The notes beneath the pieces were generated by a model. It saw only the letters and a program-made list of their open reading frames with translations, searched no databases and was not told the DNA's origin. A stretch of 64,000 nucleotides of DNA from an uncultured Chloroflexia bacterium. Lineage in GTDB: Bacteria > Chloroflexota > Anaerolineae > CG2-30-64-16. Below, piece after piece: positions 2,895-22,434 of the stretch. Position 1 is the stretch's first letter. Each line of letters opens with the position of its first letter. The stretch is taken from assembly GCA_963810095.1 (NCBI GenBank), contig CAWEMM010000014.1, positions 192,001 through 256,000 on the forward strand, written 5' to 3'. The position numbers and the translations under genes were made by a program.

Positions 2895-5800
2895 CTAAGC
2901 AGCCAGAGCCGGCAAGAGTTGACTCAAGGCGTAGTCAGCCTCGGCCAGCGCAGGCGCGAGTGCCATGCTCTTGCCCGCCGACCACGCCAGCTTGTGAGGA
3001 TCGCCGTCAAGCGCGGCGCGTGCGGGCGCCAGGCGTTCGGCCAACGTCTGCTGCTCGCGGGGAGAAAGCGGCGCGCCAATGGCCTCGCGCAAGGTGTCGG
3101 CGGCACCTGCCAGCCGGAGTGCGGGCGCCGCCGTACCCGTCCTGGCCAGCAGCGTCGCGACGTCTTCGAGCAGGTATGCCAGTGCCCAGCGGTCGCCCAA
3201 CGCCGCGTTGAGGGCCAGGCTCTCGCGATAGAGGTCGACCGCAAACGCGGCGTCCCCCTGATCGCGCGCCACATTGCCCAGGTTGTTGAGCGAGTTGGCG
3301 ATGGACCACTTGTCGCCGATTTCGCGGTGCAGCCCGACGGCCTCCTCGAGGTAGCTGCGGGCGGCTGTCAGGTCGCCCAGTTGCAGCACAAGATTGCCCA
3401 GGTTGTTGAGCGAGTTCGCAATGCCCCATTTGTTGCGGAGCTCACGGCGGATGGCCAGGCTCTCCGCATAATAGCCCTGCGCGGCCGTCGCATCGCCCAT
3501 GTTGCGTGCAAGGATGCCGAGGTTGTTCAGCACATTCGCGATGTTCGGCCTATCGTCCAGGCTCCGGCGGATGGCTAAGCTTTGCTCGCAGAGGGCGCGC
3601 GCTTGTTCGCGCTCGCCCTTCTGCCAAGCCAGCGACCCGGCGCAGATGAACGCTTTTGCGACGCCCGGCAGGTCGCCGCAAGCCTCTGAACCCGATCGCG
3701 CTTGTTCGTACCACGGCCCGGCCTCAGCGTAGTTACCCTGCTTTCGCAGCAGTTCGCCGAGCCCGATTCGACACACGGACAGTCGCGCGCCGTCGCCCAG
3801 CCGCTCGGCCTCTGCCAGGCCCTCTTCGTAGCACGCCCGGGCCTCAGGCCAGCGGCCGACCAGTTCCAGCACCTGACCGAGCTTGACCTGGACGTCCAGA
3901 TGTTCACCGTTATCCAAAACGCTTAGGCTGCGCTGGAAGTAGTCGATGGCCGCGGTGTTTGCGTAGCGCGCCTGGGCCGCCTCGCCGGCCCTGCGCAGGT
4001 ATTCCCGGCGTTTCGGCAGGTTGTCGGTGCGATCGTAGTGATGCGCCAGCAGGTCGACGGCCTGCTCCCAGTTATCGCCCGCCGCTCGCTCCAGGTGTTC
4101 GGCGATTTGGTCGTGCAACACCGCCCGGGTGGCAAACGGCAGGCTGTCGTAGGTCACCTCTTGGGTCACGACATGTTTGAACAGGTAGGTCTGCTCGGGT
4201 TCCTCGTCGACGGCGGTCAACTCGACGTCGCTCAGCACGCTCAGCGAACCGAGCACCTGCACTTCTTCGCCGAGCGACGGGTGCACGTCCCACAGCAGGC
4301 CGGCCTGAAAGACCCGACCCACGACGCTCGCAACCCGCAGCACCGCCCGGGGGTTTTCGGCCAGGTGGTCGATGCGGCTTAGCACGAGGCTTTGCAGGGT
4401 CAGCGGCAGGTCGAGCCGGCCGAGGGCCTCGGCGTCGCCCGGGTCGATGCTGCGGTCACGAACATAGTTGAGCAGCTCTTCGATGTAGAACGGGTTGCCC
4501 TGTGCATGCGCGGCGATACGGGCGGCGAATTCCGGCGGCGCGGCCTGGCCCGCGCCGAAGAACTGCTGCAGTTTCAGCTCGATCAAGCGGTTCGCCTCTT
4601 CGGGCGAGAATTCCACCAGCGCGATTTCGGTGAAATGCGGCAGGTCTCGGACCGCCAGATCGTGCTGGTGACCCTCTTCCGGGGGCCGGTATGCCAGCAG
4701 TATTGCAACCGGCAGGTTGACAATCGCTCGCCCGATCACCAGCAGCAAATCCCGCGAGAGCGCATCCATCCAGTGACCGTCTTCGAGCACGAGCAGCAGT
4801 GGTTCCGACGTGGCGCGTGCGGCTACGGCGTCGGCCAGCAGGCTTTCGAGGCCGGCCTTCCGCAGCTTCGGGTCGAGGCCGCGAGTCACGTCGTTTTCGG
4901 CCAGCGGGACGTTGATCGCCGCGGCCAGCAGCGGCACACGGGGCAGCAGCGCCGGGTCAAGCCGCGCAAGTTCGGACGTGAGCTGCTCCGCGACGGCATC
5001 CGGGGCCGAGCAAGCGTCGATGGCGAAGAAGGCCCGCCAGATGTCCTGCCAGACGAGGTAGCTGGTGTTTGCACCATACGACCGGCATTCGCCGCCGAAG
5101 CCAATGAACCCGTGGGCGGTCGCAAGCCGAATCGCTTCGGCGGCAAGACGAGACTTGCCCATACCGGCCTCGGCGGTGACGCCGATCACCTGGCCCCGAC
5201 CCGCCCCTGCCCGCGCGAGCCGCGATTCGATCAGGGCCAACTCGTCCGTCCGCCCCACCATGGGCAGGGCATACGCCGGCTCTTGCAGGCGCAGCGCGGC
5301 CCTGACCTTCCTCCCGCTCATGCGGGACACTGCGATCGGGGCAGACTTGCCCTTGACCCTGATCGGTTCCAGCGTCTCCCAGTTGAAGCAGTCTGTCGTT
5401 GCGGTCACGACCGCGGGCGTGGCAAGCACCTCGCCCGGGCCGGCGTTCTGCATGAGGCGGGCGGACAGATTCACGGCATCGCCAAGCACCCCGTAGGTGC
5501 GCCGGGTGGTGCTGCCGTAAGCGCCGGTCCGCATGCGGCCCTGGGTGATGCCGATCTGCACCGTCTGCATATAGTCCAGGCCGGCCGCCAGACCCTGCAG
5601 ATCGGCCGCGGCCGACACGGCCCGCATGGCATCATCCTCGTGCGCGACCGGCGCACCAAACGCGGCATACAGATAGCTGCCCTTGTCGCCGAGCGTTAGC
5701 TGGATCAGCGTGCCATCGTAGGTGCTGAGGATGCGCTGGACCTCCCTGACATAGGCATCGAGCTTGACTCCGGCCCGCTCGTCGCGATCGTAGTCCAGCC

Positions 5801-6605
5801 CGCCAAACCGCATGAAGAGCGCGACCGCCGGCCGCAGCTCGGCCAGGAACTCGCCGAATCCGGACCGCAGCCGTTCGTAAACTGCGGGCAGCAGCCACTC
5901 GCGGCACTGCTGCTCCGAAAGAGCGTCGTTGCCCAGCGGCGGCCAGGGCGTAGACGGGGGCGGCGAATGGAGGGTGGTCACGACGCCGAACGCCGCGCTT
6001 GTCCCATCGCCGCCGCGCAGCTCGCTCACGGAAATCCGCTCGCCCAACGCGGCCAGCGTTGCCGGATCGACGACGACCTCCCCACGGCCCGCGTGATGTT
6101 CCGCGTCGGCCAGGTTGTCGAGCGTCGCTCCGGACAGCACGTCGATCAGCTCAACCGCGGGATCGCCAACCAGGAAGCGCCGGGCCGGACCGACCGCCAC
6201 GGCCACCTTCACCGCCAGGCTAACCTGCTTCCCCGATGCGGTCGTCACGGTGGCAAACTGCTGCATCGCTCGTTGCATGGCCTGGGCGCAGGCGACGGCG
6301 CGCGCACCGTCGTCGCCGTCGAGCCAGCACGTGATGGCGTCGCCGCTGAAGCCGATGACGCTGCCCCCGCTGTTGTCCAGCTCGGCAATGAGCGCGTCGT
6401 ACACCAGGTTAAGGTGGCGGGCCAGTTCCTCGGCCCCTCGCTGCGGGCCAAGCTCGGCGGCGAGTGCTTCGGTCAGAGGGGTGAAACCAGAGATATCGGC
6501 GAAGAGGGCCGCGCCCTGCACCCGTTCGGGAAGGACTTGTCCTCGCGCCATCGCCTGGCGCCGGTCCATGGGGATGTAGACGCTCGCAGCTTCGATGACG
6601 GTCAT
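2895..6605 (-). CDS. Soluble-adenylate-cyclase-like protein: two class III cyclase domains + STAND/AAA NTPase + TPR repeats
   Basis: FADISGFT and FSGDA (cyclase 1); LGDKG and YGVLGDAVNLSARL (cyclase 2); Walker A AEAGMGKS; Walker B LLVLED; GNPFYIEEL; ~40-aa repeats with AN(S/V)LNNLG; start placed at ATG 6605 after GGAGG. Confidence 0.92.
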   Translation of the reverse strand: MTVIEAASVYIPMDRRQAMARGQVLPERVQGAALFADISGFTPLTEALAAELGPQRGAEELARHLNLVYDALIAELDNSGGSVIGFSGDAITCWLDGDDGARAVACAQAMQRAMQQFATVTTASGKQVSLAVKVAVAVGPARRFLVGDPAVELIDVLSGATLDNLADAEHHAGRGEVVVDPATLAALGERISVSELRGGDGTSAAFGVVTTLHSPPPSTPWPPLGNDALSEQQCREWLLPAVYERLRSGFGEFLAELRPAVALFMRFGGLDYDRDERAGVKLDAYVREVQRILSTYDGTLIQLTLGDKGSYLYAAFGAPVAHEDDAMRAVSAAADLQGLAAGLDYMQTVQIGITQGRMRTGAYGSTTRRTYGVLGDAVNLSARLMQNAGPGEVLATPAVVTATTDCFNWETLEPIRVKGKSAPIAVSRMSGRKVRAALRLQEPAYALPMVGRTDELALIESRLARAGAGRGQVIGVTAEAGMGKSRLAAEAIRLATAHGFIGFGGECRSYGANTSYLVWQDIWRAFFAIDACSAPDAVAEQLTSELARLDPALLPRVPLLAAAINVPLAENDVTRGLDPKLRKAGLESLLADAVAARATSEPLLLVLEDGHWMDALSRDLLLVIGRAIVNLPVAILLAYRPPEEGHQHDLAVRDLPHFTEIALVEFSPEEANRLIELKLQQFFGAGQAAPPEFAARIAAHAQGNPFYIEELLNYVRDRSIDPGDAEALGRLDLPLTLQSLVLSRIDHLAENPRAVLRVASVVGRVFQAGLLWDVHPSLGEEVQVLGSLSVLSDVELTAVDEEPEQTYLFKHVVTQEVTYDSLPFATRAVLHDQIAEHLERAAGDNWEQAVDLLAHHYDRTDNLPKRREYLRRAGEAAQARYANTAAIDYFQRSLSVLDNGEHLDVQVKLGQVLELVGRWPEARACYEEGLAEAERLGDGARLSVCRIGLGELLRKQGNYAEAGPWYEQARSGSEACGDLPGVAKAFICAGSLAWQKGEREQARALCEQSLAIRRSLDDRPNIANVLNNLGILARNMGDATAAQGYYAESLAIRRELRNKWGIANSLNNLGNLVLQLGDLTAARSYLEEAVGLHREIGDKWSIANSLNNLGNVARDQGDAAFAVDLYRESLALNAALGDRWALAYLLEDVATLLARTGTAAPALRLAGAADTLREAIGAPLSPREQQTLAERLAPARAALDGDPHKLAWSAGKSMALAPALAEADYALSQLLPALAA

Positions 6606-6643
6606 TGCGCCTCCGAGGCGGGCCGGTCTCTGCATGTCGCGGG

Positions 6644-6684
6644 GTGGCGCCATTGCCCGGCCCCCGGCCGGGCAATGGCGCCAC
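6644..6684. terminator. Perfect 19-bp stem-loop between the giant secreted protein gene and the cyclase gene (no U-tract; terminator or RNA-processing/stability hairpin)
   Basis: gtggcgccattgcccggcc-ccc-ggccgggcaatggcgccac. Confidence 0.55.
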
Positions 6685-6693
6685 GCGCCCGGG

Positions 6694-9600
6694 TTACTTG
6701 TGGATCACGACGCTTCCGCCACCCAGCGTCGTGACCGGGTCGGCCGAGTCGCTCGCGCCAGCCTGGTTGTCGTAGACAGTGGCGCCGGTCGCCTTGTCCC
6801 AGACCTTGAGCCGCAACTTGTCGACGCCACCGCCGCCGGTCACCTGCCCATCCCAGGCTGTTAGAATGAATCCGTAGCTCCCGGCGCCGTTGACCGTGCC
6901 GGTGCCCTTGTATTGCGCTTTCGCCCCCGACACTACGAGCCACTCGTAAGCGGTGCTCTTGAATTTGAAGTTGGCTGCGTTGAAGATGAACTGCGTGTTG
7001 CCCTGGGGCACGGTCTTGCCCTTCTGGTACTTCGATTCGAAGCCGAAGGTCGCCTTCCCGGTCAAGCTCGGGTCGGCCGCGATAGGCGCCTTGAGGCGAC
7101 GTGATCCAGCCGCTGCCAGTGACGAACCCGCCGTTCGGGTCGTATATTACCACGTACTCGAAGACGCCTGTCCCCGTCTGACCGTGGTTGTCGGTTACGG
7201 TGAGTCCGACGGTGTAGACGCCCGGAGTCGTGTAGGTGTGGCTGCCCGTCGCCGAGCCCGCACCTGTCGCCGTCGGCTCCGTAACAGCGCCCGCCGACGT
7301 CGTCCCGTCGCCCCAGGTCCAGACGGCCGTGTGCGTGTCCGTCTTGCCTTCGTCCGTGAAGGCTGCGCGGAGCGCCGCGGGCCCGCCGATCGCGATGGGG
7401 TCGGCCGGCCCGGTGATCGACGTGATCGCGGGCGGGCTATCGATGGGCGGCACGCCCAGGGTGGCAGACACCGAGCGGTACAGCGGGTCCGCGCCCGATA
7501 TGTCGCCGCCAAAGGTCGCGACGACGAGGTAGGCGATGGTCTGAGGCAGCCGCGCCGCTTCGAGCACGGCCCGGCCGCGAACGTCCGTCTGTGAGGCTGC
7601 GGTGAACAGGAGCGCGCCGGTTGCCTGGTCGCTGACCTGGAAGACGACGGGCAGGCTGCCCAGCCCGTACCCGCTCGTGCCTTTCAGCGTCGCGACGACG
7701 TCGGTCGGCCGTCGCCTGGAGACTGACGGCCCGGTCGAGTGTGATGGTCGTAGGCTGCATGTCGATCGTCAAGTCCGTGACGAGCGTGGCAGGGTGCAAG
7801 CTGCCGGCGTGCCGGCAAAGCTGACGCTCACTCTGTACGGGTTTGTGCTCGGCGTCGCGGTCACGCCGAGCCAGGCGCTCGCCTGCCCATCGCTTCCGGT
7901 GATGGCTGTGGCCGTCTCGGCGCCCAGCGCAAAGGAGAGCGTTTGCCCGCCGGCTCCACTCGAGCCGGCCGTCAGCTTGGCCTTGATTTCAATCCGGTCG
8001 CCGTAGTTTGCCGAAGCGGGCAGGGAAACGATGGCCAGGGTCGGCTTGGTCTGGACCACGCCTGGCGGCGGGGGCGGAGGCGGCAGGCTCGGATCGACAT
8101 TTGGCACGTAGTACGCGCCGTCGTTCGTCGCCATCGTGACCATGCCGGCCGCGTTGGCGGCCTGGACCATGTAGCGGAGATCGTCAACTGCCGTGCCGGC
8201 CGGGATGGGGAGGATCCCAGTCCACAAGGTGGTATCGTCAGCATTCTGCGGCACGCTCAAGGGGACCGACTGCCACTTCCCCGCCAGGCTGCCCGAGCCT
8301 GTGTAGGTCACCCACACTTCCTGCACGCCCGCGTAGACGCTTGCCGTCACGTTGACCTTGAACGTCACCGTGTTACCCGATGCCGTTGCGATCACGTGGC
8401 CGATCGCGGGCGGCGCGGCCTGTGCGGCTGCAGCCGTGTTCGTGCTGTAGTACAGCCGCAAGCCGACGTTCGTATACTCCCGCAGCGTGCCGTCTGGCGC
8501 GGCCGCGCCGTTCGACTGGTACTGACTGCCCGTCAGCATCAGGTGCGTCGTGCCGCCCTCCGCGCCGTCGAGCAACTGGAAGTAGTTCACGTTCCAGGGG
8601 CGGATCGGGTAGAAGTAAGACGAGAAGAACGCCGGGCTGGCGGCCGCGTAGTCAGTCGAAGGGGCGCGAGTCAGCGGCCGCACGTCTTTGTGGTCGGTGA
8701 ACTCGGCGCTGCGGAAGCCCACCCCGCGCAGGACGCCGGGCAGCGTCGTGACGACGGTTGTATTGTTAGTATTTGTATACTCAGCCTGCCCAGCATCGTA
8801 GATCTTGAGCGGCAGGACGGGCTCGCCGGGTCGGCCGGTGGTGCCGTTCGGCCCCTGAAGGTAGGAGTAGTCGTGTAGGTTGCCGTCGGCCCGGTCGCGC
8901 AACGACTTGACCCCTGACCCTGACCCGGGCAGCAGCGTCGTGTCGACGGTAGTCAGGTCGTCGCTCGCGGTAACCGGCGTGCCGGGAACAGGCGGCGGCG
9001 CGGGCGGCGCGACCGGGTCGCCTGGCAGGCTGACGCTGAACATCGGCAGGCCGTACAGGGTGGCGATGAGAACGGTTTTCTTGTCCACCCCCCCGATGCT
9101 CACGCCGGTGTAGGCGAGATAGTCCTGCTTGGCCTGCACCAGCGCCTTGCCGACCGGCACCGCGACGCCGTTGTTCCGCAGCCGCCCGGTAAAGTCCAGA
9201 TACAGCCGTTCACCGAACTCCATGAAATCCCGGTCGCCGTACTGGTAGCCGGTGCCGGCGATCCAGGTCGCGCCCTTCTGGGCCCAGGCTTGCGGCCAGT
9301 CGGGCTCGCGGGTGATCGTCGCCCGGTCGCGTCCTTGAAGTTGTCGTCGTTGACAGTATTGTAGCCCGAGTGGCAGCCGATGCTGTAGACCAGGGCATTC
9401 CTCAGGTCGACGGTGGAGGCGGCGACGGTCGGATGCGAGCAGGCGCGTCGTGTCGTCGGCTGCCAGCGCGCTGGCGTGCGAGAAGTGGCCGGCGAGGTAG
9501 ATCAGGTCGTGGCGTTCGGCTAAGCAGCTTCGACTGAAGCGCGGTGGCAGTCCACGGAATCCTTAGCGAACTGGCTGACTGGCGCGATCAGCTCGGAATC

Positions 9601-12600
9601 GACCAGCGTGCTATCAGGAAGCCCCGCCCGCAGCGCCTCGGCCACTGCATTCGTCCCGTCATCCAGCGGGCCGTAGCCGGTGACGAGCGCAGAAGTCGGG
9701 TGCAGCACGCCGTCGTCGTCGGTCGTATCGGGGTTATTGCGTCAGACCTACGTATGCGTCGAGCAGCGCGTTGACGTCGTCGGCCGTTTCGACCAGGCGG
9801 CCGACCGGCAGATCAGGGATGGGCAGCAGCCCGTCGGACTGCATGATCTCCGTGCTCGCCCCGTAGGTGTCCTGCGTCAGCAGGTAGCCCAGGGCCATGC
9901 TGGCGCGGGACGCCGAGTCCGGGGCGGAGGGCGGCGCGTAGTCGCTCTCCTTCGACAGCGGCGAGGGGTCGGGGTAGCGGAAGAAGGGGAAGAGCGCGTC
10001 GTTGCCGACGAGGACGACGTAGTCAAAGTCGTCTCGGGCTCGTGACTGCACTCGTGCCCGGTCGATCACGTTCTTGATCACATAGGCAAGCTGGTTCTGC
10101 GCGTACGGGCACGCCTTGTTTTCGGTCGCTTCCTGGCGGGCGGCCGCAATCTGCGGGTCTGCTCCGCCACGATGTCGACGATCACGCCTGACACCTCGGG
10201 CCGCCGCTGCCAGCGCGTCGAGCTTGCCGGGCAGAGAGCATCTCTTGCGTCCGTCGATCCCTCTATCCGCGGCCAGGTCGGTCAGGATGAGCGTCTTGAA
10301 CCTGCGTTCCCTGTGCCGCGCCTACGGGCACGTCGGGCAGGCTCAGTGTCGTTTGAGGAGTCACTGGGTCGACGTTCGCGCACACGCCGGTCAGCCGGGT
10401 GACAGAGAGGTGGAACGGCCTGGTGCGGACCGCGACGCCATTCCGCCCGCGCACCCGCACGTAGAACGTTCCCGTGCTCAGCCAGGTATTCCGCGTGATG
10501 CTCTCGGCCGCTAGGCCGTCGCGTGCGGAGACGCCCATCAGCGAGCGAAGCTGCGCGCTCGAGTAGGCGTTGGCCCAGGCGTCGGGATTGCTCCAGGCAT
10601 CGGGGTTCGCCCAGGCGTCGGGATTTGCCCAGGCGTCCGGGTTGCTCCATGCATCCGGATTGGCCCACGCATCCGGGTTGGCCCATGCGTCCGGGTTGGC
10701 CCATGCGTCCGGGTTGGCCCAGGCGTCGGGGTTGCTCCATGCATCGGGATTCGAGCCCAGGCATCGGGATTCGCCCAGGCATCGGGGTTAGCCCAGGCAT
10801 CGGGATTCGCCCAGGCATCCGGGTTGGCCCACGCGTCGGGGTTGGCCCAGGCGTCCGGGTTGCTCCACGCATCGGGGTTCGCCCACGCATCGGGATTGGC
10901 CCACGCATCCGGGTTGGCCCATGCGTCCGGCTGCGTCTCGGCGGCGAGCTTAACCAGGTCGTCCGGCGCGGTGAGCGCCTTGAACAGCCCGCCGATGTCC
11001 TGGTACAGCGTCATGTCGTAATCAGCGGGGAGGTTTGCCAGGTCGACGATCAGCTGCTCGCCCGCACCGGCCTGGAATTTGTACCAGCGCGATTGACCCG
11101 GCCGGGTCAGGTAACCGTCTTTGCTCGTCGTCAGGACCGGCTCGGTTCCGGTCCAGGCAAGCGCGTCCGCCGTGGTCCAGCCGGTATTAACCCCTTGCAC
11201 CGGGCGTGCAGGCTGGAGAACTCGGACGTGCCCTCCGCGCCGGTGGCGGTTACTGCCAGGAAGGGCTGGCCGGCGGGCATCGCGGCCACGTCGACCAGGT
11301 CGAAGACGGCCTGCCCGTTAGAATCGGTGATGCCTGTCAGCGACCTAAGATGCGTCTGGGCCTCGCCAAACCCTGTCGCCCCGCACGTTGCACTGCTGAA
11401 GAAGTCCAGCATGTAGGACGTTGCCGGCTTGCTCTCGAAGAGACCCTGGACACGCGTCTGGCCGTTGAATGGGAAGGCGTTGAGCAGAATGGGCTGATTC
11501 TGCAGGCCGTTTGCGCCGCCGTCCGCGTCGGCATCCCCGACATCGTTCGCCGTCGGCCCGTCGCTGCCTAGGTCGATCGCCAGCCCACCGTTACCGTAGA
11601 TGCGGTTGTTCTGCAGCTTGTTGCCCGTGCCACTGAGGACAGCGATGCCTGCGCCGGTGAAGCTGCGCACCTCGAGATTGGAGACCTGCACTGCGCCCGT
11701 CGCGAGCGTCAGACCGTTGGTTCCGCCAGCCGCGATTGCGCTGCCATCGAGGACCGCCGTGTTGCCGCCGTCGATCGTCACCTTGGACCTGATGGTCGGG
11801 AGGGCGCTCGCGGGTCGGATGGCCCCGAGTCCGGCCCCGAAAACGATGGTGACGTTCCCCGGACGAGGCGTTCGGCCTCCTGGATCGCGGCACGTAGGGT
11901 GCAACCATCATGGGCAGAGGCGCAGGTGCCATTGCCGATGTTCTTGTCGACGCTGTCGGCCGGTGCTGTTGACGGTGAAGATTTGAGGGTGGCGCCGCGA
12001 GTACTCGTACGTGCCGATGTCGGGAACGAGCCTTGCTCACGAGGGAAGCCTGCGCCGCGCTGGTCAGTGCTCGGCGTGCCGGAGTAGCCGCTTGTAACCG
12101 CGTCGATAGCCGGGCTGCCAAGCTGCAGTGCGTACAGCTCGGTCGGACCGCCGTATGTGCCCGCGCGTACCGAACAGGGGATCAGGCGGCGAAATGCTGT
12201 GCCGGCGCTGCGGTATGTGCCAGAACTGCAGATTGTTGTTGAGCCCGCGCGGAGCGGGCGCGGTGCAGTTTCCGCCCGAGTTGTTGGCAATGATCGTGTT
12301 CGTGGCCGAGACATCCGTGTCGACGATAATACCCCGACCGCTGTTGTTCGCAATCGTGGAGAAATTGATCGAGAACTGACTGGTACCGGTTGGCACGATG
12401 GCGTCGCCCGTGTTACCTGCGATCGTGCTGTTCTCAATTACAACTGGCGAGCCTAGATTGACCGCCTCGATCCCAGCCCCGCTGCTGGAGGCGCTGTTGT
12501 CGAGGATTGCGCTACGGATGATTTGTGGTCCGGGTGAGCCGTCCGCGACGAATGCCGGCGCCAACTTTTGCGCTGTTGGACTGAACGGTGGTCTCGGTCA

Positions 12601-13912: not shown

Positions 13913-13963
13913 GTGAGGATAAGCGAGAGGGGTACTTTCGTGCTGGCTCGGTGCGGCGCTGCT

Positions 13964-14641
13964 TTACCGGCCCAATCCCATCCGGCCGGCGTAAGCCAGC
14001 ACCTGCGCACGGTTCTCCAGGTGCAGGGCGGCCATGATCTCGCCCATGTGGTACTTGATGGTGCGGGGCGCCAGCCCCAGCCGCGCGCCCACTTCGCCGT
14101 ACGACAGCCCTTCGGCCACGAGCGCCAGCACTTCGCGCTGGCGGTCGGTGAGGCTGGGCGCGGTCAAGCCGGCGGACGATGCGGGAGCCCCGTCATGGGT
14201 TGGCGCCGCGGTGGGTGGGGTGGCTGCCATCCGCCCGAACTCATCGAGGAGCCTGGCGGCGAGGCCGGGCGAGAAGGGCGGGAGCCCCAGCCGGGCCTGC
14301 TCGAGCGCGTCCACCAGGTCTGCCGCGTCCATGCTCTTGAGCAGGTAGCCGCACGCGCCGCTCTTGATCGCCTCGAACAGGTCCTCGTCTTCGGTCGACG
14401 TCGTGAGAATGACGATGCGGGCGTCGGGCCAGGCCGCCTTGATGAGCCGGGTCGCGGCGAGGCCGTCGCAGTCGGGCATGCGAATGTCCATCAGGATCAC
14501 GTCGGGCCGCAGGCGCAGCGCGGCCGCGGCGGCCTGCCGGCCGTCCGTGGCCGCACCGGCAATTTCGATTCCGTGCGCCTCCAGCAGGTTCGCCAGCCCT
14601 TCCAGCAGGAGCCGGTGGTCGTCGGCCAGCAGCACTCTCAT
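13964..14641 (-). CDS. NarL/FixJ (LuxR-HTH) response regulator
   Basis: MRVLLADDH, PDVILMDIRMP, GYLLK, LTDRQREVLALVAEGLSYGEVG..RTIKYHM. Confidence 0.95.
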   Translation of the reverse strand: MRVLLADDHRLLLEGLANLLEAHGIEIAGAATDGRQAAAAALRLRPDVILMDIRMPDCDGLAATRLIKAAWPDARIVILTTSTEDEDLFEAIKSGACGYLLKSMDAADLVDALEQARLGLPPFSPGLAARLLDEFGRMAATPPTAAPTHDGAPASSAGLTAPSLTDRQREVLALVAEGLSYGEVGARLGLAPRTIKYHMGEIMAALHLENRAQVLAYAGRMGLGR

Positions 14642-14665
14642 GGTCGCCCCCTGTTGCCTGCGCAA

Positions 14666-16378
14666 TTACGCCCCGCGCACCGGCGCACGAAGCACAACCC
14701 GGGTTCCCGCCCCCGGCTGCGAGTCGACGGCCAGGCGCCCCCCAATCTCGGCCATGCGCTCGACCATGAACCCCAGCCCGTAGTGCCCGTCTCGGCCTGC
14801 CGTGCCCGGTGGGGGATCGAAGCCCACGCCGTCGTCGCTGATCGAGATCACGTTTTCGCCGTCGACCTGCGCCACGCTCACCGTCACGCAAGCGGCATGG
14901 CTGTGCTTGTGCGCATTGGTCAGCGCCTCTTGCACCACCCGGAACAACTGAACGCTGGACGCGGGCGAGATGGCGCCTGCGTCCAGCCCCGGTTGGATGT
15001 CGAGACGCGTCGCCATCTGCGAGTATTGCCCATAGGTGACGAGGTATTGTTGGAGCGCGGACAAGAATGACCACTGCTCAGTCGGCGTGCCTTTGAGAAT
15101 GAGGATGGACTCGCGAACATCCGCATTCGCCTGCTGCGCGGCTTGGGCGAGCCGTCGCAGCTGCGCCTCTGCCGTGCTCAGGTCGCCGTCCTGCACGTGC
15201 TTGGCAATGGCTTGGGCCTGGAGGCTGACAAAGGCCAGCGTCTGCCCCGTGCTGTCGTGCAGCTCGCGCGCCAACTGCTCCCGTTCGCGCAGCACGGCCA
15301 GCGCCCGCTCCTGCTCGAGGATGCGGGCCTGTGCCCGCTTCTGCTGCGTCGTCTCGCGCAGCGTCAACAGGTGACCGACGAGCAGCCCGCGAAAATCGCG
15401 CAGCACGGTGAGTGCGGGCTCGTAATAGCGCACGTTGGCGCCGGTCCCGAAGACCATTTCCGGGAGCTCGAACTCCGCGTCGCCCGACCCAAGGTTCGGA
15501 TGCGGCAGCGGCGGCAGGCGTTCGGGGTCGGACATTTGCTCCCATGTTTTGCCGCGGGCGAGGTCGAAGGGGATGCCAAGGATCTGCTCGGCCGCGGGGT
15601 TGAGACCGGCGATCTGCCAGCGCGGGTCGAACACGATCATCCCGGCGCGCATCTGCTCGATGACGGTGGCACGCGCCACGGGCAGCGGATCGAAGATGCG
15701 GAACCCGAAGAGCGCGATAGTATACGCAACCAAGGCAACGGCCGGCCCCACCAGGCGAAAGTCGAACCAAACCGGCAGCGGCGTGCGGAAGTAGTCGAGC
15801 ATATAAGCGCTGCGGCTCACGATTCCGGCGACCAGCATCAGCGCCGCGGGCCACCGGTGGCGGGGCGAGCGAACGAAGAGCCAGACGAGCGCCGTCACCT
15901 GGATCCCAAGCAGGATCAACATGTAGCCCACGATGAAGCGACCGGCAGGAGCGAGGTAGGGCGTCACTTGGCCGCCTGCCTCCACCTCCAACGAGTACCA
16001 GACAAATCCCCGGTTGTCTATGGCCGTGAGCAGCAGATCCAGCAGTGGCACAAGCAGCGGCGCCGCGAGGAGCGCGACGTTGCGACGGCTCAACCAACGG
16101 CCCGGGTAGGTGTACTCGAGGACGAAGCACACGGCGGCGAGCAGCGCGAAAGACGGCCAAATAGACTGGAAGCGGTACCCGGTCACCTTAGCGGCGGGTT
16201 CGACGGCGAGCGTTTCGAGGATGATGCCGGCCATCCAAAAGGCCACGAACAGGCACGCCGCCGCCAGTTGCCGCGCACCGGGCATATCCCGGCGTCGCCA
16301 GCTCTGCAGGCCGACGGCCGCGGCGAGGAGGGCGACCGCCAGGGGCGGCCAGATGGCTGGGGTGAAGGAGTAGCTCAT
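14666..16378 (-). CDS. Sensor histidine kinase: N-terminal 7TM region, PAS, HisKA_3, HATPase
   Basis: About seven hydrophobic segments; MRAGMIVFD..IAGLNPAAE; EREQLARELHDSTGQ; QEALTNAHKHS; DDGVGF; GHYGLGFM. Confidence 0.95.
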   Translation of the reverse strand: MSYSFTPAIWPPLAVALLAAAVGLQSWRRRDMPGARQLAAACLFVAFWMAGIILETLAVEPAAKVTGYRFQSIWPSFALLAAVCFVLEYTYPGRWLSRRNVALLAAPLLVPLLDLLLTAIDNRGFVWYSLEVEAGGQVTPYLAPAGRFIVGYMLILLGIQVTALVWLFVRSPRHRWPAALMLVAGIVSRSAYMLDYFRTPLPVWFDFRLVGPAVALVAYTIALFGFRIFDPLPVARATVIEQMRAGMIVFDPRWQIAGLNPAAEQILGIPFDLARGKTWEQMSDPERLPPLPHPNLGSGDAEFELPEMVFGTGANVRYYEPALTVLRDFRGLLVGHLLTLRETTQQKRAQARILEQERALAVLREREQLARELHDSTGQTLAFVSLQAQAIAKHVQDGDLSTAEAQLRRLAQAAQQANADVRESILILKGTPTEQWSFLSALQQYLVTYGQYSQMATRLDIQPGLDAGAISPASSVQLFRVVQEALTNAHKHSHAACVTVSVAQVDGENVISISDDGVGFDPPPGTAGRDGHYGLGFMVERMAEIGGRLAVDSQPGAGTRVVLRAPVRGA

Positions 16379-16420
16379 GGGGCTACCATCTCGCATGCGA
16401 AGCGGGTTGAGAACTCCAGG

Positions 16421-16429
16421 ATTATAGCA
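16421..16429 (-). promoter_or_regulatory. Extended -10 promoter element for the kinase-regulator operon
   Basis: Minus strand TGCTATAAT about 40 bp upstream of ATG 16378. Confidence 0.6.
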
Positions 16430-16496
16430 CATTGCGTTGGCAACACCGGGCGCACACATGCTCGCATGCGGGCCCGAACGACATCGTTATGATGTC

Positions 16497-16525
16497 TTGA
16501 CAGACCGCGCTCTTAGTGCCATGAT
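16497..16525 (+). promoter_or_regulatory. Sigma70-type promoter for the translocase-HEAT-cNMP operon
   Basis: TTGACA (16497-16502), 17-bp spacer, TG-c-CATGAT. Confidence 0.65.
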
Positions 16526-16580
16526 TGGGGCGTGCCAGCACGGCCCACGTTGCTGCCTTCGCTGCCAGGAGGTGCTCCTC

Positions 16581-19500
16581 ATGGGTCTCTCTCTAGTTCC
16601 ACGCCCCGCTCCTCCAACGCCCCATCCCACGCCGTCTCCGCTCGACGTGCTTCTTGGCTTGCAGCCCGGCGATGGCCGGCGCACCTGGTCGCTGACCGGG
16701 CTCCATTTCGCGCTCGGTGCGGTGATTGTCTTCATGCAGGCCCCGGCCTTTGGCCTGTTCGTGTCCGAGTTTGGCTCCCAGCGTCTCCCCTTTGCGTATA
16801 TCGCCATCGCCGTGCTGGTCAGCGCGCTCAACCTGGCCTACCTGCGCCTGAGCAACCGGTTCCCGTTCGTGCCCCTCTCGTTCGGCGTGCTCGGGTTCCT
16901 GGCGGCCGCGTGCGTCGCGCTCTGGCTGGGCCTGCTGACGCCGCTGCGGCCGGCCGTGATCTTTATCCTGCCCGTTGGTTTCCAGCTAACCATCAACGTC
17001 ACCGTCCTCGTCCTCTGGCCGCTCGCGGGCCGCGGATTCAACTTGCGGGAGGCTAAGCGGACCTTCGGCGTTATCTCCGGCGGCAACTGGACGGCCAGCC
17101 TGCTCGTGGGCCTGATCCTCGGGCCGCTGATCGCGCTCATCGGGACCCAGAACCTGCTGCTCTGTGCTGCAGCCAGCGCGTTGGCGGCCCTGCTCCTCCT
17201 TGGACCCGTCGCGCGCATCGCGGGCGTGTGGAAGCCCGGCCCAACGACCGCCGGCAGCGCTCCGAAGCAGCCCCGGGCGGCAGTCAACCCTGTCCCGGTG
17301 CGGACGCTCCTTTCCGGCCCAATGATCCGGCCGCTTCTGCTCTACGTGGTTCTGCTCTGGATCATCTACTATTTCGTCGATAACATCCTGTGGGCCACTG
17401 CGGGCCAGCGTTTCGCAGACGCGGCCCAACTCGGCGCGTTCACCGGCCGGGTCGTGACCTTCTATGGCATCCTGGCCGCCGTGATGAGCCTTTTTTTGGC
17501 CGGGCGTATCCTGGGCCGCTACGGCGTCCGGAACGCGCTGCTCCTGCTGCCGGTGCTGCTGACCCTCGACATGGCCCTCCTCGCAGTGGTTGGGACGCTG
17601 CAACCATCCTCCGCGCTCGTCTTTGCCTTTGCCACCATTGGGAAAGTGCTCATGATCGGCCTGGGATTCTCCCTTTCATCGACGGCGTTTACATTCTTGT
17701 ACCAGCCCCTCCCACCTGCCATCCGGGGCAGGACGCAAGCCCTCGCCGAGGGGGTCCTGCAGTCCCTGGCCATTGGCCTCGGCGGCGTGCTCCTGCTGCT
17801 CTTCACGTCGGTGCTGCACTTCGGCGCGGTGGGCTTAGCTTGGTTGGTCATCCCTATCAGCCTCGTCTGGATCGCCTCCATCCTGGTGATCGGCCGGCAG
17901 TATCCGCGGGCCGTCGTCGCGGCTCTCGACCGGCGCCGGTTGGGCGAGGGGCCCGGCCTCACGCTGGATCGCGATACGCTCGCGCTCCTCCGCCCGCGGC
18001 TCGCCGACCCTGCGCCGGCCGTGGTGCTCTATGTTTTGCACACGCTCGAGCGCGAGGATGGGAACTGGAGCTTGACCCTCGAGAGCGGCCTGCCCCAGAT
18101 GCTCGCCCACCCCCTGCCAGAGGTGCGCGAGGCCGCGCTGCACGCGGTGTCTCGCTTGGCCGTGTCGAAGTCTGCCGGGGGGAATACCGGCGTGGAGGCG
18201 GGCGCGTCAGGCAACGACGGCGCGCACGCGCAGGTCGTCGGAATCGTCACCGAGCACTTGAAGCGCGAGTCGAGCCCGATGGTCTGCTCGGCGGGGGTCG
18301 AGGCGATCGCGGCGCTGCGCGGCGCAGAAGCCGGCCCCTTCCTCGAGAGGATGCTCGGCGGCGACCCGCCGACCGAACGGGCCGTCCTGGTCGCATTACT
18401 GCGCTTACCGGGCGGGTCGGCTGCGGCCGAAGCGCGATTGGCAGAACTTGCCGGCTCGGCGCTTCCCGACGACCGCGCGCGCGCTGCAGCCACCTGCGAA
18501 GCCACACGACGTGCGGCGGACCGGGCGCTCCTGGCGGGGCTGCTGGCCGACGAAGTAGTTTCCGTGCGCCGGGCAGCGCTGGCCGCGGCCGCACAGCACC
18601 CCGGTGCCGACCTGTGGGAAGGGGTGATTGCGGCCTGTTGCGAGCCGGAAACCGCGGCTGCCGCGCAGGCCGCGCTGGTGGCGGCCGGCGAGAGGGCCGT
18701 GCCGGCCATCGGCGCCGCCCTGACGGCCGGAGAAGAGAGCGAGGGAGACGCCGAGCGCCGCCAGCGGATTGCCTTGACCGAGGCTTGCGCGCGTATCCGC
18801 GGTGCATCTGTCGTCCCGATGTTGGAGAGCCAGGCTGACGCGCTCGACGTCGACGTGCGCGGCGCCGCATTGCGGGGTCTTGCCGGGTGCGGCGTGCGCG
18901 CCGAGCGGGGCGGGCAACTGCGCCTCGACCGGGAGGTCAGCCTTGCGGGTCTGCTCGCCGCGGCCTTAGCCGGCATAGCGGCCGGCTCCTCTGCCGGCGG
19001 CGGCGCCGCAAGTCTCTGCACGTCCGCCCTCGGCCGTGAGCTTTCGAATGTGCGCGAGCGTCTGCTGCTGCTCCTCTCCCTTCAGTTCGACGCCGCGTCG
19101 CTGCTGTCGGCTCGCGACACGCTGGCCGACGCCGACGATGCCCGTCGAGCATACGCGCTGGAGGCGGTCGAGCTGCAGCTTCCCGCAGCCATGCGGGCGC
19201 GCATCATGCCCCTGGTGGAGCTGCCGCCGCCGGCCGAGCTGGCCGCACGGCTCCGTTCTGCCGGCATGGAAGTTCCGGACTGGACCGAGGCCTCGGCGCT
19301 TGCGGCGGTCGTCGGCAAACCTTTGGAGCTGGAAACGCCCGCCGCGCCGGGTTTCGCCGGCCTGCCGCCTTTGACACAGGCGGCAGCCATCCACCACGCC
19401 GCGGTATACTGCCCACAGGCGCTTACCCGGCTTATCCAGCTCGGAGCCCTTTCCCCCTACAGCCTCGTCAGAGAGACTGCGGCTTGGGCCGCGTGCCTCG

Positions 19501-19988
19501 ACGCGCAACATCCCCATGGAGCAGCAGTCATGTTGTCCACGATCGAGAAGGTTCTGGCCCTTAAGCGCGCCGGTATATTCGGGCAGACGCCCGATCCGGT
19601 GCTGGTCGACGTCGCCCGGCTCTGCGACGAGGTGGACCTGCCGGCGGGCGCGCCTGTATTCGCCAAAGGCGACCCTGGCGACAGCCTCTACGTCATCGTC
19701 CAGGGGCGGGTGCGCGTGCAAGATGGGGCGCGCACGCTGAACGATCTCGGGGAGGGCGACGTCTTCGGCGAGCTTGCCCTTCTCGATCCCGAGCCCCGGA
19801 TGGCCTCGGTCAGTACGCTCGAAGACGCCCGCCTGCTGCGGCTCGAGGAGGCCCCGTTCCAGGAACTGATCCGGCAGCAGCCAGAGGTCGCCTTGGGCGT
19901 CATCCGCGTCATCACCCGCTACCTGCGCGAGCGCGCGCAGGACGTCGTGAAGCTCGACGCACAGTTGAGCGCATTGGCGAGCCGGTAG
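16581..19988 (+). CDS. Npt1/Npt2-like (TLC/MFS) nucleotide translocase fused to HEAT repeats and a C-terminal cNMP-binding domain
   Basis: About 12 TM segments with FNLREAKRTFGVISGG and FLYQPLP..RGR; Ala/Leu-rich HEAT-like repeats; FAKGDPGDSLYVIVQGRVRV...FGELALLDPEPRMASV; AGGAGGT RBS before ATG 16581. Confidence 0.88.
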   Translation: MGLSLVPRPAPPTPHPTPSPLDVLLGLQPGDGRRTWSLTGLHFALGAVIVFMQAPAFGLFVSEFGSQRLPFAYIAIAVLVSALNLAYLRLSNRFPFVPLSFGVLGFLAAACVALWLGLLTPLRPAVIFILPVGFQLTINVTVLVLWPLAGRGFNLREAKRTFGVISGGNWTASLLVGLILGPLIALIGTQNLLLCAAASALAALLLLGPVARIAGVWKPGPTTAGSAPKQPRAAVNPVPVRTLLSGPMIRPLLLYVVLLWIIYYFVDNILWATAGQRFADAAQLGAFTGRVVTFYGILAAVMSLFLAGRILGRYGVRNALLLLPVLLTLDMALLAVVGTLQPSSALVFAFATIGKVLMIGLGFSLSSTAFTFLYQPLPPAIRGRTQALAEGVLQSLAIGLGGVLLLLFTSVLHFGAVGLAWLVIPISLVWIASILVIGRQYPRAVVAALDRRRLGEGPGLTLDRDTLALLRPRLADPAPAVVLYVLHTLEREDGNWSLTLESGLPQMLAHPLPEVREAALHAVSRLAVSKSAGGNTGVEAGASGNDGAHAQVVGIVTEHLKRESSPMVCSAGVEAIAALRGAEAGPFLERMLGGDPPTERAVLVALLRLPGGSAAAEARLAELAGSALPDDRARAAATCEATRRAADRALLAGLLADEVVSVRRAALAAAAQHPGADLWEGVIAACCEPETAAAAQAALVAAGERAVPAIGAALTAGEESEGDAERRQRIALTEACARIRGASVVPMLESQADALDVDVRGAALRGLAGCGVRAERGGQLRLDREVSLAGLLAAALAGIAAGSSAGGGAASLCTSALGRELSNVRERLLLLLSLQFDAASLLSARDTLADADDARRAYALEAVELQLPAAMRARIMPLVELPPPAELAARLRSAGMEVPDWTEASALAAVVGKPLELETPAAPGFAGLPPLTQAAAIHHAAVYCPQALTRLIQLGALSPYSLVRETAAWAACLDAQHPHGAAVMLSTIEKVLALKRAGIFGQTPDPVLVDVARLCDEVDLPAGAPVFAKGDPGDSLYVIVQGRVRVQDGARTLNDLGEGDVFGELALLDPEPRMASVSTLEDARLLRLEEAPFQELIRQQPEVALGVIRVITRYLRERAQDVVKLDAQLSALASR

Positions 19989-20034
19989 TCATCGCAGACG
20001 CCCATTCCGCGCTGTGCAGCCCCGGGAGGCCGCC

Positions 20035-21718
20035 ATGAACACGGAAGCCTTGGATCGCTACCTGCCGGCCAACATGCGCGCCGAGCTGGAGACGCGCTTC
20101 TATGCGCGGGTGAATGATGCCGCACGCATAGAGAACACGCTGCACGACCCGGACCTGTGGAGCGAGAAGACGCACCTGACCTGGTTCTCCGATCACGGCG
20201 TGATTCACGTGCGAGACGTGGCCACCCAGATCCTCAACGTGCTGGACGTGACCCACGGCGTGCTGATCCCAGCCCGACCGCCTCAGCGCTTCGATCCGTT
20301 CATGAAAACCTACGGTGTGCTGTTGTCCTATCTGCATGACATCGGCATGTCCGACTTCTCGCCTTACGGCCGCAAGATGCATCCCCAATATGCCGCGCAG
20401 GCCGTCTTCTCGGGCGAGCTGGACACGTGGGTCCGGCAGGCATGGGACGAAAACCTGGGCAATATTGCGTGGCGGCTGGTGAACCTCGAACGCCGCGGCC
20501 TGCTGCCGCAAGCGCCTGAGGACATTTTCCGGGAGATGTTGGCGCTCAGCATGGGACACAGCAAGAGCAAGGTTCCCATGGATGTCCTGAACGAACCGAG
20601 TCGCCTGCGCGCGGTGCTTCTGCGCACCTTGACGACGGACCTGCAAGTGCTCCATCTTGATGGGCCAAGCGCAGAGGCCGGCAGATCAGGGCCGTATCAA
20701 GCAGACAGCGAGCGTGCCTTCGCGTGGCTGGTTTGCGACGAGCCGGATTGCCGCGAACTGGTCGACGACGTGGTCGACACCGTTCGGGCGCTCCGTTGTG
20801 CAGACGCGCTTGCGCCAACGCGGGACCCTCCAAAAGACATCCGCCGGCTACGAGGTGTTTGTCAGCCTGGAGAGCGGCAACGCGACGTTCTCTGTGCGGC
20901 AGGGCGAGGACAAGCTGTATTTGCTCGAGCACTCGGAACCGCTCAGTGCCGGCGAGGCAAACATCGCCAGCAGTGAGATCACCCGTGAAGGACATCTCCG
21001 CATAGCCTTTCACCGCGGCGCGTTTGCGAGCGAATCAGCGGTCCGGCGTGCGGTTCAGGCAGCGGCCGTCACCGTCGACGACATCCAGGCGGACGTAATC
21101 ACCAGCTTCGCCCGTACACGCGCAGATCGCATGTCGGACCCTTCAGCGGGCATGACAATACTGCTTGAGGCCGTCGAAGACAACCCATACTTTGTGGACC
21201 AGGTGATTGTTTCGCTGATCAGCCTCAATCCCAGCCTCGCCGGTCGCGTCGCGCGCGTTCCGTCGCTGGGCGGGGCCGCGGTGAGCGAGAGCAAGCGCTA
21301 TCTGGCAGGGGTGATACTTGACTGGGATCGCGAACGCAAGTGCGCGCTGCTCGAGAGGTTGGCCCTGTCAGGCCAGCGCATCGACGGCATGGATCTGGAA
21401 GCGGCCTTCGAGCACGTCAAGCTTGCGACCGTGGAGGCCGACGAGCGTTTGATCGAAGCCCGCATGCCCGCCGGATTCGTGTACATTCCGCTTGGCGAGG
21501 GGCTGATCGTCGCGCCGTTGGGCGGCTACCAGTCGTTTACCGTCAAGCCTTTCATGCCGTTGGGCTCCACGGGCGTCATCCGGGGCGCCGTGCGCAATGC
21601 CGACGTCGTCGCCGCGCAACCTGTAGAGGTCTTGATCATTCCGAAGGAGATCTACTTGCACCACTGGCACCGTCCGTATACACTCCGCGAGCTGCACAGA
21701 TTGCTCACCGAACCATAG
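20035..21718 (+). CDS. HD-superfamily metal-dependent hydrolase with C-terminal degenerate cNMP-binding domain (one frameshift near 20810)
   Basis: FSDHGVIHVRDV, YLHDIGM, MHPQY, GHSKS, LRCADAL continuing as RQRG in the next frame; C-terminal GFVYIPLGEGL...PLGSTGVIRGAVRNADV; GGGAGG RBS. Confidence 0.8.
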
Positions 21719-21759
21719 CGCGGCTCGTGGCGCCGCGACGCTGGCAGACAGGATTGTGC

Positions 21760-22434
21760 GTGAACAAGCTCAATGTGGAAGGTGCGATCGCTTACGCCCT
21801 CAACCGGCTGGAGGCAGAACTCGCTCCCGACATGACCTATCACAGCCCGGGGCACACCCGGGACGACGTGATCCCTGCGGCGACTCGGCTGGCGCAGTTG
21901 GCCGGCCTGTCAGAGGTGGAGACGGGGCTGCTGCAGGTTGGCGCGGCCTACCACGACCTGGGATTCACGGAGCACCCGCAGGAGCACGAGTTGTGCAGCG
22001 TGCGCATTGCCGCCCAGGTGCTCCCCGCGTTTGGCTTCAGCGCCCGCGCCATCGAGCGCGTACTCGGCATGATCATGGCGACCCGCTTGCCCCAGTCGCC
22101 CCGCCACCTGATCGAGCGGCTGCTCACGGACGCGGACCTGGACGGGCTGGGACGAGAGGACTTTTTCACGCGCAGTGCGGAGCTGCTGGCCGAGCGCCGC
22201 GCCTACGGCCGGGTGGTGACCGAAGAGCAGTGGTGGCGCGAACAGGTCGCGTTCCTCACCGAGCACCGGTATTGGACCAGCTACGCCCAGCAGCTGCGCG
22301 GCGAGGGCAAGGCGCACAATTTAAGGCTCTTGCAGGAGCGGCTAGAAGGGACAAATGATGAGGCGGCGAAGATGCCAGATCCAGGGGGGAATTGCGCCAG
22401 AAACCGGGTTAGCTGCGCGCCAATCAGTTCGTAA
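21760..22434 (+). CDS. Stand-alone HD-domain phosphohydrolase
   Basis: YHSPGHT, AAYHDLG, HELCS, IMATRLPQSP, LTDADLDGLG; GTG start at 21760 inferred. Confidence 0.88.
   Translation: MNKLNVEGAIAYALNRLEAELAPDMTYHSPGHTRDDVIPAATRLAQLAGLSEVETGLLQVGAAYHDLGFTEHPQEHELCSVRIAAQVLPAFGFSARAIERVLGMIMATRLPQSPRHLIERLLTDADLDGLGREDFFTRSAELLAERRAYGRVVTEEQWWREQVAFLTEHRYWTSYAQQLRGEGKAHNLRLLQERLEGTNDEAAKMPDPGGNCARNRVSCAPISS

Follow-up and report, generated by a model that had tools for sequence, protein, structure and literature searches.

The window analysed here, a stretch of 64,000 nucleotides from an uncultured Chloroflexia bacterium (contig CAWEMM010000014.1), carries four genes whose products probably form one signalling circuit: a tandem cyclase, a nucleotide carrier bearing a cyclic-nucleotide-binding (CNB) domain, and two HD-type hydrolases. 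One of the hydrolases is a small stand-alone HD protein and the other, which we call HD-x-CNB, joins an HD-like domain to a conserved middle domain and a CNB-fold domain. We favour, with some confidence, the reading that these genes belong to a conserved cyclic nucleoside monophosphate (cNMP) signalling module, in which HD-x-CNB is the likely phosphodiesterase and is paired with a canonical cNMP receptor. The conserved unit is HD-x-CNB together with such a receptor, most often a cNMP-binding transporter; in Chloroflexota the partner is usually a carrier of the NTT-HEAT-CNB architecture, and the small HD and a cyclase of the soluble adenylyl cyclase (sAC) type are optional, being found in a subset of genomes. 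The partner is exchangeable while the theme stays constant, as in the cyanobacteria, where the partner checked with Pfam is a SulP-type carrier.

The linkage was followed across genomes with a profile of HD-x-CNB, which gave 103 confirmed loci in species-representative genomes, and counts were taken from the best 80 of these with at most 10 kb of flank per side. Partners were scored with hidden Markov models (HMMs) built iteratively, starting from the CNB, cyclase, carrier and small-HD domains of the window; domain HMMs were used because single-linkage clustering of the neighbouring open reading frames (ORFs) merged HD-x-CNB with carriers via their CNB domains. Grouped by record titles, the loci come from Chloroflexota (44, among which we placed a few Candidatus genera that presumably belong there), Cyanobacteriota (7), Mycobacterium (7), other Actinomycetota (5), Bacteroidota/Ignavibacteria (8), Proteobacteria/Myxococcota (6) and others (3). 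Another CNB lies in an adjacent gene on the same strand (within 600 bp) in 42 of the 80 loci, and in 26 of the 50 that have at least 5 kb on both sides; for one of the 42, L012, the match may come from HD-x-CNB itself, its CNB being read in a shifted frame. An NTT domain is present within 5 kb of HD-x-CNB in 33 loci (22 of the 50), a small HD is near it in 8 (5 of the 50) and a tandem cyclase in 7 (5 of the 50), with a single cyclase-domain match in 3 further loci. The density of CNB domains is 0.56 per kb within 600 bp of HD-x-CNB versus 0.003 per kb beyond 4 kb, an enrichment of about 180-fold. By group, an adjacent CNB and an NTT are found in 29 and 27 of the 44 Chloroflexota loci and in 4 and 4 of the 5 from other Actinomycetota, and in cyanobacteria every one of the 7 loci has the adjacent CNB, with an NTT absent throughout. 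The catalytic part of the neighbouring cyclases is 52-58% identical to that of the window in six loci and 39% identical in L055 (tblastn). The three rightward genes, which the sequence-only reading of this DNA had joined with the cyclase into a cyclic-nucleotide circuit, are therefore linked to one another and to cyclases in other genomes as well. Its proposal of a self-contained module stands for the cyclase, the carrier, HD-x-CNB and the small HD, which recur, and has to be narrowed for the genes between them. The histidine kinase found no tblastn match in the 80 loci and the response regulator only five weak, distant ones; these two and the pseudo-receiver are not conserved partners of the module, and the giant secreted gene probably lies outside it as well.

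All four genes occur together in four of the 80 loci (L003, L016, L028 and L055). In L003 they share a strand and are spaced by 36, 5 and -4 bases, an operon-like arrangement whose order is HD-x-CNB with an added CNB (787 aa), NTT-HEAT-CNB (1096 aa), small HD with CNB and HAMP (443 aa) and cyclase-AAA_16-TPR-SBP_bac_5 (1521 aa). The gene order varies: HD-x-CNB is placed between two NTT-HEAT-CNB genes in L001, with the cyclase diverging from the second and all four genes packed into 6705-19289, and in L028 the cyclase and the small HD diverge from NTT-HEAT-CNB and HD-x-CNB, which is the layout of the window minus its inserted genes. In the cyanobacterial loci L047, L051, L057, L063 and L073 a CNB-bearing gene stands directly upstream of HD-x-CNB and a small CNB gene directly downstream; the partner checked with Pfam is a SulP-STAS-CNB transporter (L051:7700-9925, + strand). 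A CNB-SpoIIE phosphatase is found in L043, 0.9 kb downstream and thus beyond the 600-bp limit.

The association also takes the form of fusions. A Pfam cNMP_binding match is present in 8 of the 17 longer HD-x-CNB representatives that were scanned; it lies outside the HD-x-CNB core in 7 of the 17 (six C-terminal, one N-terminal), and the remaining match, in P0235, falls on the CNB-like domain of the core itself, after which comes a methyltransferase. One long relative bears hemerythrin, and 7 of the 17 carry nothing further, save DUF2786 in P0315. In P0166-P0169 (1169-1355 aa) two to three N-terminal GAF domains precede the core, and P0169 has an additional canonical CNB at its C-terminus. The GAF-bearing forms recall GAF-regulated phosphodiesterases.

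HD-x-CNB itself has neither a Pfam family nor a name. The search for it gave 742 matches at E ≤0.001 among 7165 candidates, most of the 120 listed being intact, and a profile search of 1.84 billion representatives (50% identity clusters) returned 348 proteins, 282 of them at E ≤1e-10. Since all 348 belong to the one family, HD-x-CNB appears compact and isolated; ESM Atlas labels its clusters 'hypothetical protein', and they share no common Pfam family. Intact relatives measure 560-590 aa and the window product about 570 aa. In the N-terminal domain, residues H54, H58, H101, D102, H116 and H175 are invariant in 27 sequences and D257 is nearly so; together they form an H-HD-H-H-D pattern, which contains the H...HD...D metal-ligand motif. 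The AlphaFold2 model of this domain is all-helical (pLDDT 93.5). For the intact relative P0002 the whole model has a pLDDT of 88 and a pTM of 0.86, and among the top 50 Foldseek matches listed for it only CNB domains appear. The C-terminal domain is a CNB beta-barrel, close to CNB-A of PKG II (5c8w; Foldseek E 1.3e-5, probability 1.00, TM (target) 0.73-0.77), and is matched by Pfam cNMP_binding with E 0.034 for the window protein and 2.5e-4 for that of L001. The middle alpha/beta domain is highly conserved (alignment A1). A complex prediction of the HEAT region (410 aa) and HD-x-CNB (587 aa) of L001 scored 0.25 against a mark of 0.32 and is uninformative on binding.

The carrier is the putative receptor that stands next to HD-x-CNB in the window. 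Its ORF is open over 16437-19988, and the ATG given in Table 1, which is preceded by GGAGGTG, is its likely start and yields the same protein as the window's own database entry, P0121. Pfam finds cNMP_binding (E 4.8e-21) and MFS_1 (1.3e-6). Taken alone, the window carrier is weak for TLC (Pfam E 0.0067, below the cut-off; TIGR00769 NTP/NDP exchanger E 0.0035); within its family, Pfam TLC is matched in 17 of 18 aligned members (best E 3e-13) and the family profile (alignment A4) matches the solved NTT structures 9j3n and 9j3j (E 8.9e-21 and 7.4e-19). Relatives bear PF03219, PF13646 and PF00027 and are named 'ATP:ADP antiporter, AAA family' or 'Npt1/Npt2 family nucleotide transporter'. No Pfam HEAT model matches the window carrier at E ≤0.001, and the region aligns with relatives that have PF13646/PF02985. 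The phosphate-binding cassette FGELALLDPEPRMASV (FGELAL...PRMASV) aligns with those of PKA and PKG and keeps both the Glu and the Arg, and from this intact cassette we predict that the carrier CNB is competent to bind cNMP. The carrier of the closest relative, P0122 (86% identical), lies on the same 690-kb contig as P0002 and is recorded with 719 aa versus 1135 aa; there may be a break or a different gene call in that genome.

The cyclase aligns with the structures of human ADCY10 (4cm0, 4oya and 4clf) over two stretches (E 5.5e-28 to 7e-28, phmmer against the PDB): aa 45-198 and 249-409 correspond to ADCY10 residues 39-192 and 264-425 (E 5.5e-28). Its C1 domain (about aa 45-198) and C2 domain (about aa 249-440) are thus two catalytic-homology domains in one polypeptide, as in ADCY10, and are followed by a P-loop (AEAGMGKS); Pfam identifies Guanylate_cyc (326-438), AAA_16 and many TPR. 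The Asp pair that holds the metals in C1 is present (D53 and D105, equivalent to sAC D47 and D99), and so are the transition-state residues of C2, where the N and R of ...VNLSARLM align with sAC N412 and R416. Seven of seven orthologues share the second Asp and the Arg, and six of them have the Asn as well. The L003 orthologue (17022-21587, + strand) has a C-terminal SBP_bac_5 domain, of the peptide/solute-binding kind, after AAA_16-TPR, and in a group of four loci (L080:181-2154 is one example) the module has an SBP_bac_5 gene in its vicinity, which hints at a small-molecule or peptide input.

The small HD protein has a core of about 185 aa and a C-terminal tail some 35 aa longer than that of its relatives. 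Its Pfam HD match (E 5.9e-4, 20.6 bits) stays below the cut-off of 22. In an alignment with 8 orthologues of 39-50% identity (A3), H25, H58-D59 and D117/D119 are invariant in all 9 sequences, and the family profile matches two PDB entries with these motifs aligned, 2pq7 (E 4.9e-6) and YedJ (3gw7, E 0.0069), which places it in the HD superfamily. The two entries are deposited as a predicted hydrolase and an uncharacterized protein, and hence give no clue to the substrate. When the N-terminal domain of HD-x-CNB was compared with the small-HD family by hhalign, only the HD motif aligned, at a probability of 2%, so there is no evidence that the two HD families are close kin. In L003 the small HD (15694-17025, + strand) is fused to a canonical CNB and HAMP, and all three non-cyclase proteins of that locus bear canonical CNB domains.

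What either HD protein catalyses, which substrate the carrier moves and which nucleotide serves as messenger are matters of inference from this material, and we propose the following scheme. Once its STAND/TPR part is triggered, the cyclase would make a 3',5'-cNMP, as suggested by its metal-binding and transition-state residues. The cNMP would then bind the C-terminal CNB of the carrier and alter nucleotide transport across the membrane. HD-x-CNB would act as a metal-dependent phosphohydrolase, most likely a phosphodiesterase that removes the cNMP; this role is suggested by the H-HD-H-H-D pattern, the constant placement beside CNB proteins and the fusions to CNB and GAF domains. The small HD, with its H-HD-D residues, could be a second hydrolase, perhaps acting on the 5'-NMP product, which is speculative.

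A number of observations weigh against this scheme. The module is split in the window, where 13.6 kb separate the cyclase from the carrier, HD-x-CNB and the small HD, and only seven of the 80 loci have a cyclase nearby. Neither an adjacent CNB nor an NTT was found in any of the 7 Mycobacterium, 8 Bacteroidota/Ignavibacteria or 6 Proteobacteria/Myxococcota loci, and with 38 of the 80 loci having no adjacent CNB gene, the HD-x-CNB family can evidently work without such a neighbour; as the HMMs were seeded from the window, divergent partners are undercounted in these figures. The HD assignment of the N-terminal domain is one of motif pattern only. In Pfam the window's own domain has no match, HD included, and HD-CE matches weakly in 6 of 27 members (best E 0.0058), its profile finds no match among PDB sequences, and the best Foldseek matches, the class I phosphodiesterase TcrPDEC1 and the HD domain of Cas3, are not significant (E ≥0.23, TM ≤0.3). 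In the cassette of HD-x-CNB's own CNB-like domain, PLGSTGVIRGAVRNADV (LG[S/N/V]TGVIRGAxRNA), which resembles a phosphate-binding cassette, the Arg is kept and the ribose-contacting Glu is replaced, and with this Glu lost the domain may not bind cNMP. In the cyclase, the position of sAC Lys334, which we take to be the adenine-specifying Lys, is Gln318, and that of Thr405, presumably its partner, is Gly388, both being invariant in the 7 aligned orthologues; with a Gln at this position the product is uncertain and cannot be predicted from sequence. The positions of sAC Lys95 and Arg176, which we assume to bind bicarbonate, are Gly and Ala in the window cyclase.

The HD-x-CNB gene is also frameshifted. 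The sequence-only reading had taken the carrier, HD-x-CNB and the small HD as three genes, and all three are real, with the correction that HD-x-CNB is not one ORF: its product is read up to ...RCADAL in one frame and from RQRGT... onward in the next (Table 1). The shift falls inside the most conserved motif of the family (ADAL|RQRGT) and, if real, would leave the enzyme dead in this organism. We consider it probably an assembly error. No such break interrupts its close relatives P0002 (573 aa, 77% identity) and P0003 (566 aa, 74%), which read through. In the same window recG is spread over three frames (30945-33834, - strand; RecG_wedge and DEAD, then Helicase_C, then RecG_dom3_C), and fabD (27835-28622, - strand) is probably broken too, with two abutting frames and Acyl_transf_1 found in one of them only. 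With recG and probably fabD broken as well, the frameshifts of the window are most likely assembly indels rather than gene decay, and any frameshift in it should be distrusted; a pseudogene reading of HD-x-CNB is the less likely one for the same reason.

The main rival explanation accepts the same linkage and makes HD-x-CNB a cNMP-controlled effector hydrolase that acts on another substrate, be it NTPs or dNTPs, (p)ppGpp, cyclic dinucleotides or the carrier's nucleotides, removal of the signal then falling to the small HD or to an unlinked enzyme. We hold it to be rather unlikely, although it deserves to be ranked first among the alternatives. A degenerate CNB-like domain in the protein itself, with canonical CNB or GAF sensors fused to it or adjacent, is the usual layout of a regulated output enzyme; hemerythrin takes the place of the CNB in one relative, a methyltransferase is extra in another, and the members from Mycobacterium, Bacteroidota and Proteobacteria lack a CNB neighbour altogether. 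The strongly conserved middle domain, which has no known counterpart in phosphodiesterases, would fit such an enzyme too. On the other hand, no specific alternative substrate is indicated, and the H-HD-H-H-D pattern that HD-x-CNB displays is typical of binuclear HD diesterases. The constant pairing is moreover with cNMP receptors and not with cyclases, as would be expected of a signal terminator.

Another possibility is abortive infection directed against phage, along the lines of Pycsar or Avs: infection would be sensed by the STAND-TPR part and announced by the cyclase through a cNMP, upon which the carrier and the HD proteins would deplete or leak nucleotides. The sequence-only reading had entertained such a defence-like role, to which we assign a low probability. 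The layout of a STAND NTPase with TPR recalls antiviral STAND proteins, the non-canonical Gln and Gly at the base-specifying positions leave room for an unusual product, the family is distributed patchily across phyla, and one small group of loci has an EAD7-domain gene at a distance of a few kb. PADLOC models for PycC match the cyclase (best E 3.7e-12) and Pycsar CNB-effector models match the CNB of the carrier (E 4.5e-12). However, the PADLOC matches stay at the level of single domains, cyclase, TPR or CNB, with none for HD-x-CNB or the small HD, the nearest relative of the cyclase is soluble adenylyl cyclase, a signalling enzyme, and the flanks of the window are housekeeping, with neither mobile nor defence genes. 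The NTT-HEAT(-cNBD) architecture is, in the available text of PMC5381601, described as broadly conserved in cyanobacteria and Chlamydiae. Cyanobacterial HD-x-CNB in turn pairs with the SulP-type transporter, usually without a cyclase (one of the 7 loci has a single cyclase-domain match about 4 kb away). Finally, Chloroflexota commonly encode cyclase, CNB and HD domains, each taken by itself, and about 10 kb of unrelated genes part the window cyclase from the rest, so that a chance juxtaposition of common signalling domains among unrelated neighbours has to be weighed as well. We regard it as very improbable and already contradicted: the adjacency recurs over several phyla and in several gene orders, fused forms exist, and the roughly 180-fold excess of CNB domains is measured within the same loci.

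Parts of the cNMP module have been described before, so the remark of the sequence-only reading that it knew of no described system with this combination was too strong; the carrier architecture and the sAC-type cyclase are already known. The NTT-HEAT-cNBD fusion family, with the same three-part architecture as the window carrier, was described without functional characterisation by Major et al. 2017, Genome Biol Evol (PMC5381601), where, in the text available, cAMP binding is proposed to tune NTT-mediated nucleotide uptake, the family is also reported from Chlamydiae and oomycetes, and 2 Chloroflexi sequences are counted. The present loci differ in that the same text describes no HD-x-CNB, small HD or cyclase neighbour. 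Bacterial cyclases resembling sAC are likewise known: a bicarbonate-activated Chloroflexus enzyme is mentioned as a bacterial sAC relative in the part of PMC11006738 available to us, and the accessible part of PMC3475452 notes a P-loop and putative TPR motifs in sAC. The window cyclase resembles ADCY10 in its tandem C1-C2 in one chain, the Asp pair of C1, the Asn and Arg of C2 and a long C-terminal part with P-loop and TPR, but differs from it in having Gln and Gly for Lys334 and Thr405, and Gly and Ala for Lys95 and Arg176. As a nucleotide hydrolase joined to a cNMP sensor, HD-x-CNB would be comparable to the GAF-regulated class I phosphodiesterases (PDE2/5/6/10/11) and to the CNB-EAL protein Bd1971, so far as the latter is presented in the excerpted text of PMC6717892. 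Compared with PDEase_I, however, it has no detectable sequence similarity and no significant fold similarity, its middle domain has no counterpart there, and the likeness would be one of working only. Pycsar shares with the module a class III-type cyclase and CNB-bearing effectors fused to a membrane or enzymatic part, as the domain-level PADLOC matches reflect; unlike it, the window has an sAC-like cyclase with STAND/TPR, effectors of other families and a housekeeping context. Searches of the open-access literature turned up neither an account of the HD-x-CNB family nor one that links it with the cyclase, the small HD and transporters that bind cNMP.

Table 1. Features of the window around the putative cNMP module.
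Feature	Position	Strand	Remarks
Tandem cyclase, sAC-like, with AAA_16 STAND-type NTPase and TPR repeats (module gene)	2895-6653	-	1252 aa; Pfam
Remnants of one or more giant secreted beta-helix/PKD proteins	6602-13420	-	many frames
Receiver-like small ORF (pseudo-receiver)	~13.46-13.9 kb	-	frame-broken
NarL-type response regulator	13967-14665	-	Pfam
7TM-PAS-HisKA_3 histidine kinase	14666-16459	-	Pfam
Intergenic region, histidine kinase start to carrier start	16460-16580	.	~120 bp
NTT/TLC-type carrier, 12 transmembrane segments, HEAT-repeat region and C-terminal canonical CNB (module gene)	16581-19988	+	1135 aa; likely start ATG 16581
HD-x-CNB, whole (module gene)	20035-21718	+	
HD-x-CNB, N part, all-alpha HD-like domain	20035-20811	+	
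Extra base between ADAL and RQRGT	~20812	+	approximate position
HD-x-CNB, C part, conserved middle alpha/beta domain and degenerate CNB-fold domain	20813-21718	+	
Small stand-alone HD hydrolase, H...HD...D (module gene)	21760-22434	+	core ~185 aa; start GTG 21760 or 21775

The nearest relatives of the window as a whole are Chloroflexota (Anaerolineae). Its G+C content of about 65% crowds the ORF lists with spurious frames, and coding frames were therefore chosen by a third-position G+C frame plot. Of the leftward genes that the sequence-only reading had listed, the cyclase, the NarL-type regulator and the histidine kinase are borne out by Pfam; its giant secreted protease is not one ORF and its pseudo-receiver is frame-broken, with no match in a Pfam scan of the ORF at that place. 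The frame plot and the ORF lists resolve the giant gene (6.6-13.4 kb) into about 10 minus-strand fragments of changing frame, with a signal-peptide-like start near 13.4 kb and Beta_helix and PKD domains. The only protease signal in it is a sub-threshold Peptidase_C25 (E 0.0022), which makes the label of protease a weak one. An in-frame stop at 7769-7771 (- strand) parts the frames 7772-9562 and 6605-7768; it may mark a true boundary between genes or stem from a sequencing error. Between kinase and carrier, where divergent promoters had been proposed at 16.4-16.5 kb, there is a single sigma-70-like site on the + strand (16497-16525, TTGACA-17-CATGAT with TG; 0.1 expected from shuffles), which is a consensus match only, and the divergent promoter region is a feature of this genome and not of the module.

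The genes flanking the module are housekeeping (tatA/tatC, nusB, fabG/fabD, recG, degV, fakA, rpe and guaA), and no mobile or defence genes were found in the flanks within the window. Further downstream a polysaccharide biosynthesis cluster (44729-57263, + strand), with a lower G+C of about 59-60% versus 65%, encodes a Wzz-ParA-type chain-length regulator/tyrosine-kinase-like protein, DUF218, a Wzy_C O-antigen ligase-like protein, a flippase, glycosyltransferases and a hexapeptide acyltransferase; a second NarL-type regulator (43281-44090) stands ahead of it.

Among the other HD-x-CNB loci, those of Mycobacterium (L052, L054, L056, L060, L070, L072 and L076) have no CNB, NTT, cyclase or small-HD neighbour, and an AidB-like acyl-CoA dehydrogenase recurs upstream in a cluster of six loci (representative L060:7370-9058). 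A 'cNMP binding protein', Rv0104, is discussed in the accessible part of PMC4477654; it is at most a tentative counterpart of the mycobacterial HD-x-CNB members. In a cluster of four loci a protein with EAD7 and FGE-sulfatase domains is encoded about 6 kb from the module (L065, 17557-18660, - strand) and is probably unrelated to it.

NTT-HEAT-cNBD proteins are widespread in free-living bacteria and have no assigned function; the conserved partners described here suggest which cyclase to query for the ligand and which enzymes to test for removal of the signal, and the Gln found without exception at the base-specifying position raises the question, easily tested, of which nucleotide is the messenger. 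It is possible, if somewhat doubtful, that HD-x-CNB represents an unrecognised HD-fold class of bacterial 3',5'-cNMP phosphodiesterase and serves as the off switch of cNMP-gated membrane transporters, of the NTT type in Chloroflexota and some Actinomycetota and of the SulP type in cyanobacteria, the nucleotide being possibly a non-canonical cNMP. In that case, where the cyclase and the small HD are present as well, the genes would make up a self-contained circuit in which such a cNMP may control the exchange of nucleotides over the membrane of filamentous bacteria. Were HD-x-CNB shown to have phosphodiesterase activity, the turnover of cAMP and other cNMPs in bacteria would gain a new catalytic class, with members in Chloroflexota, cyanobacteria, mycobacteria and Bacteroidota.

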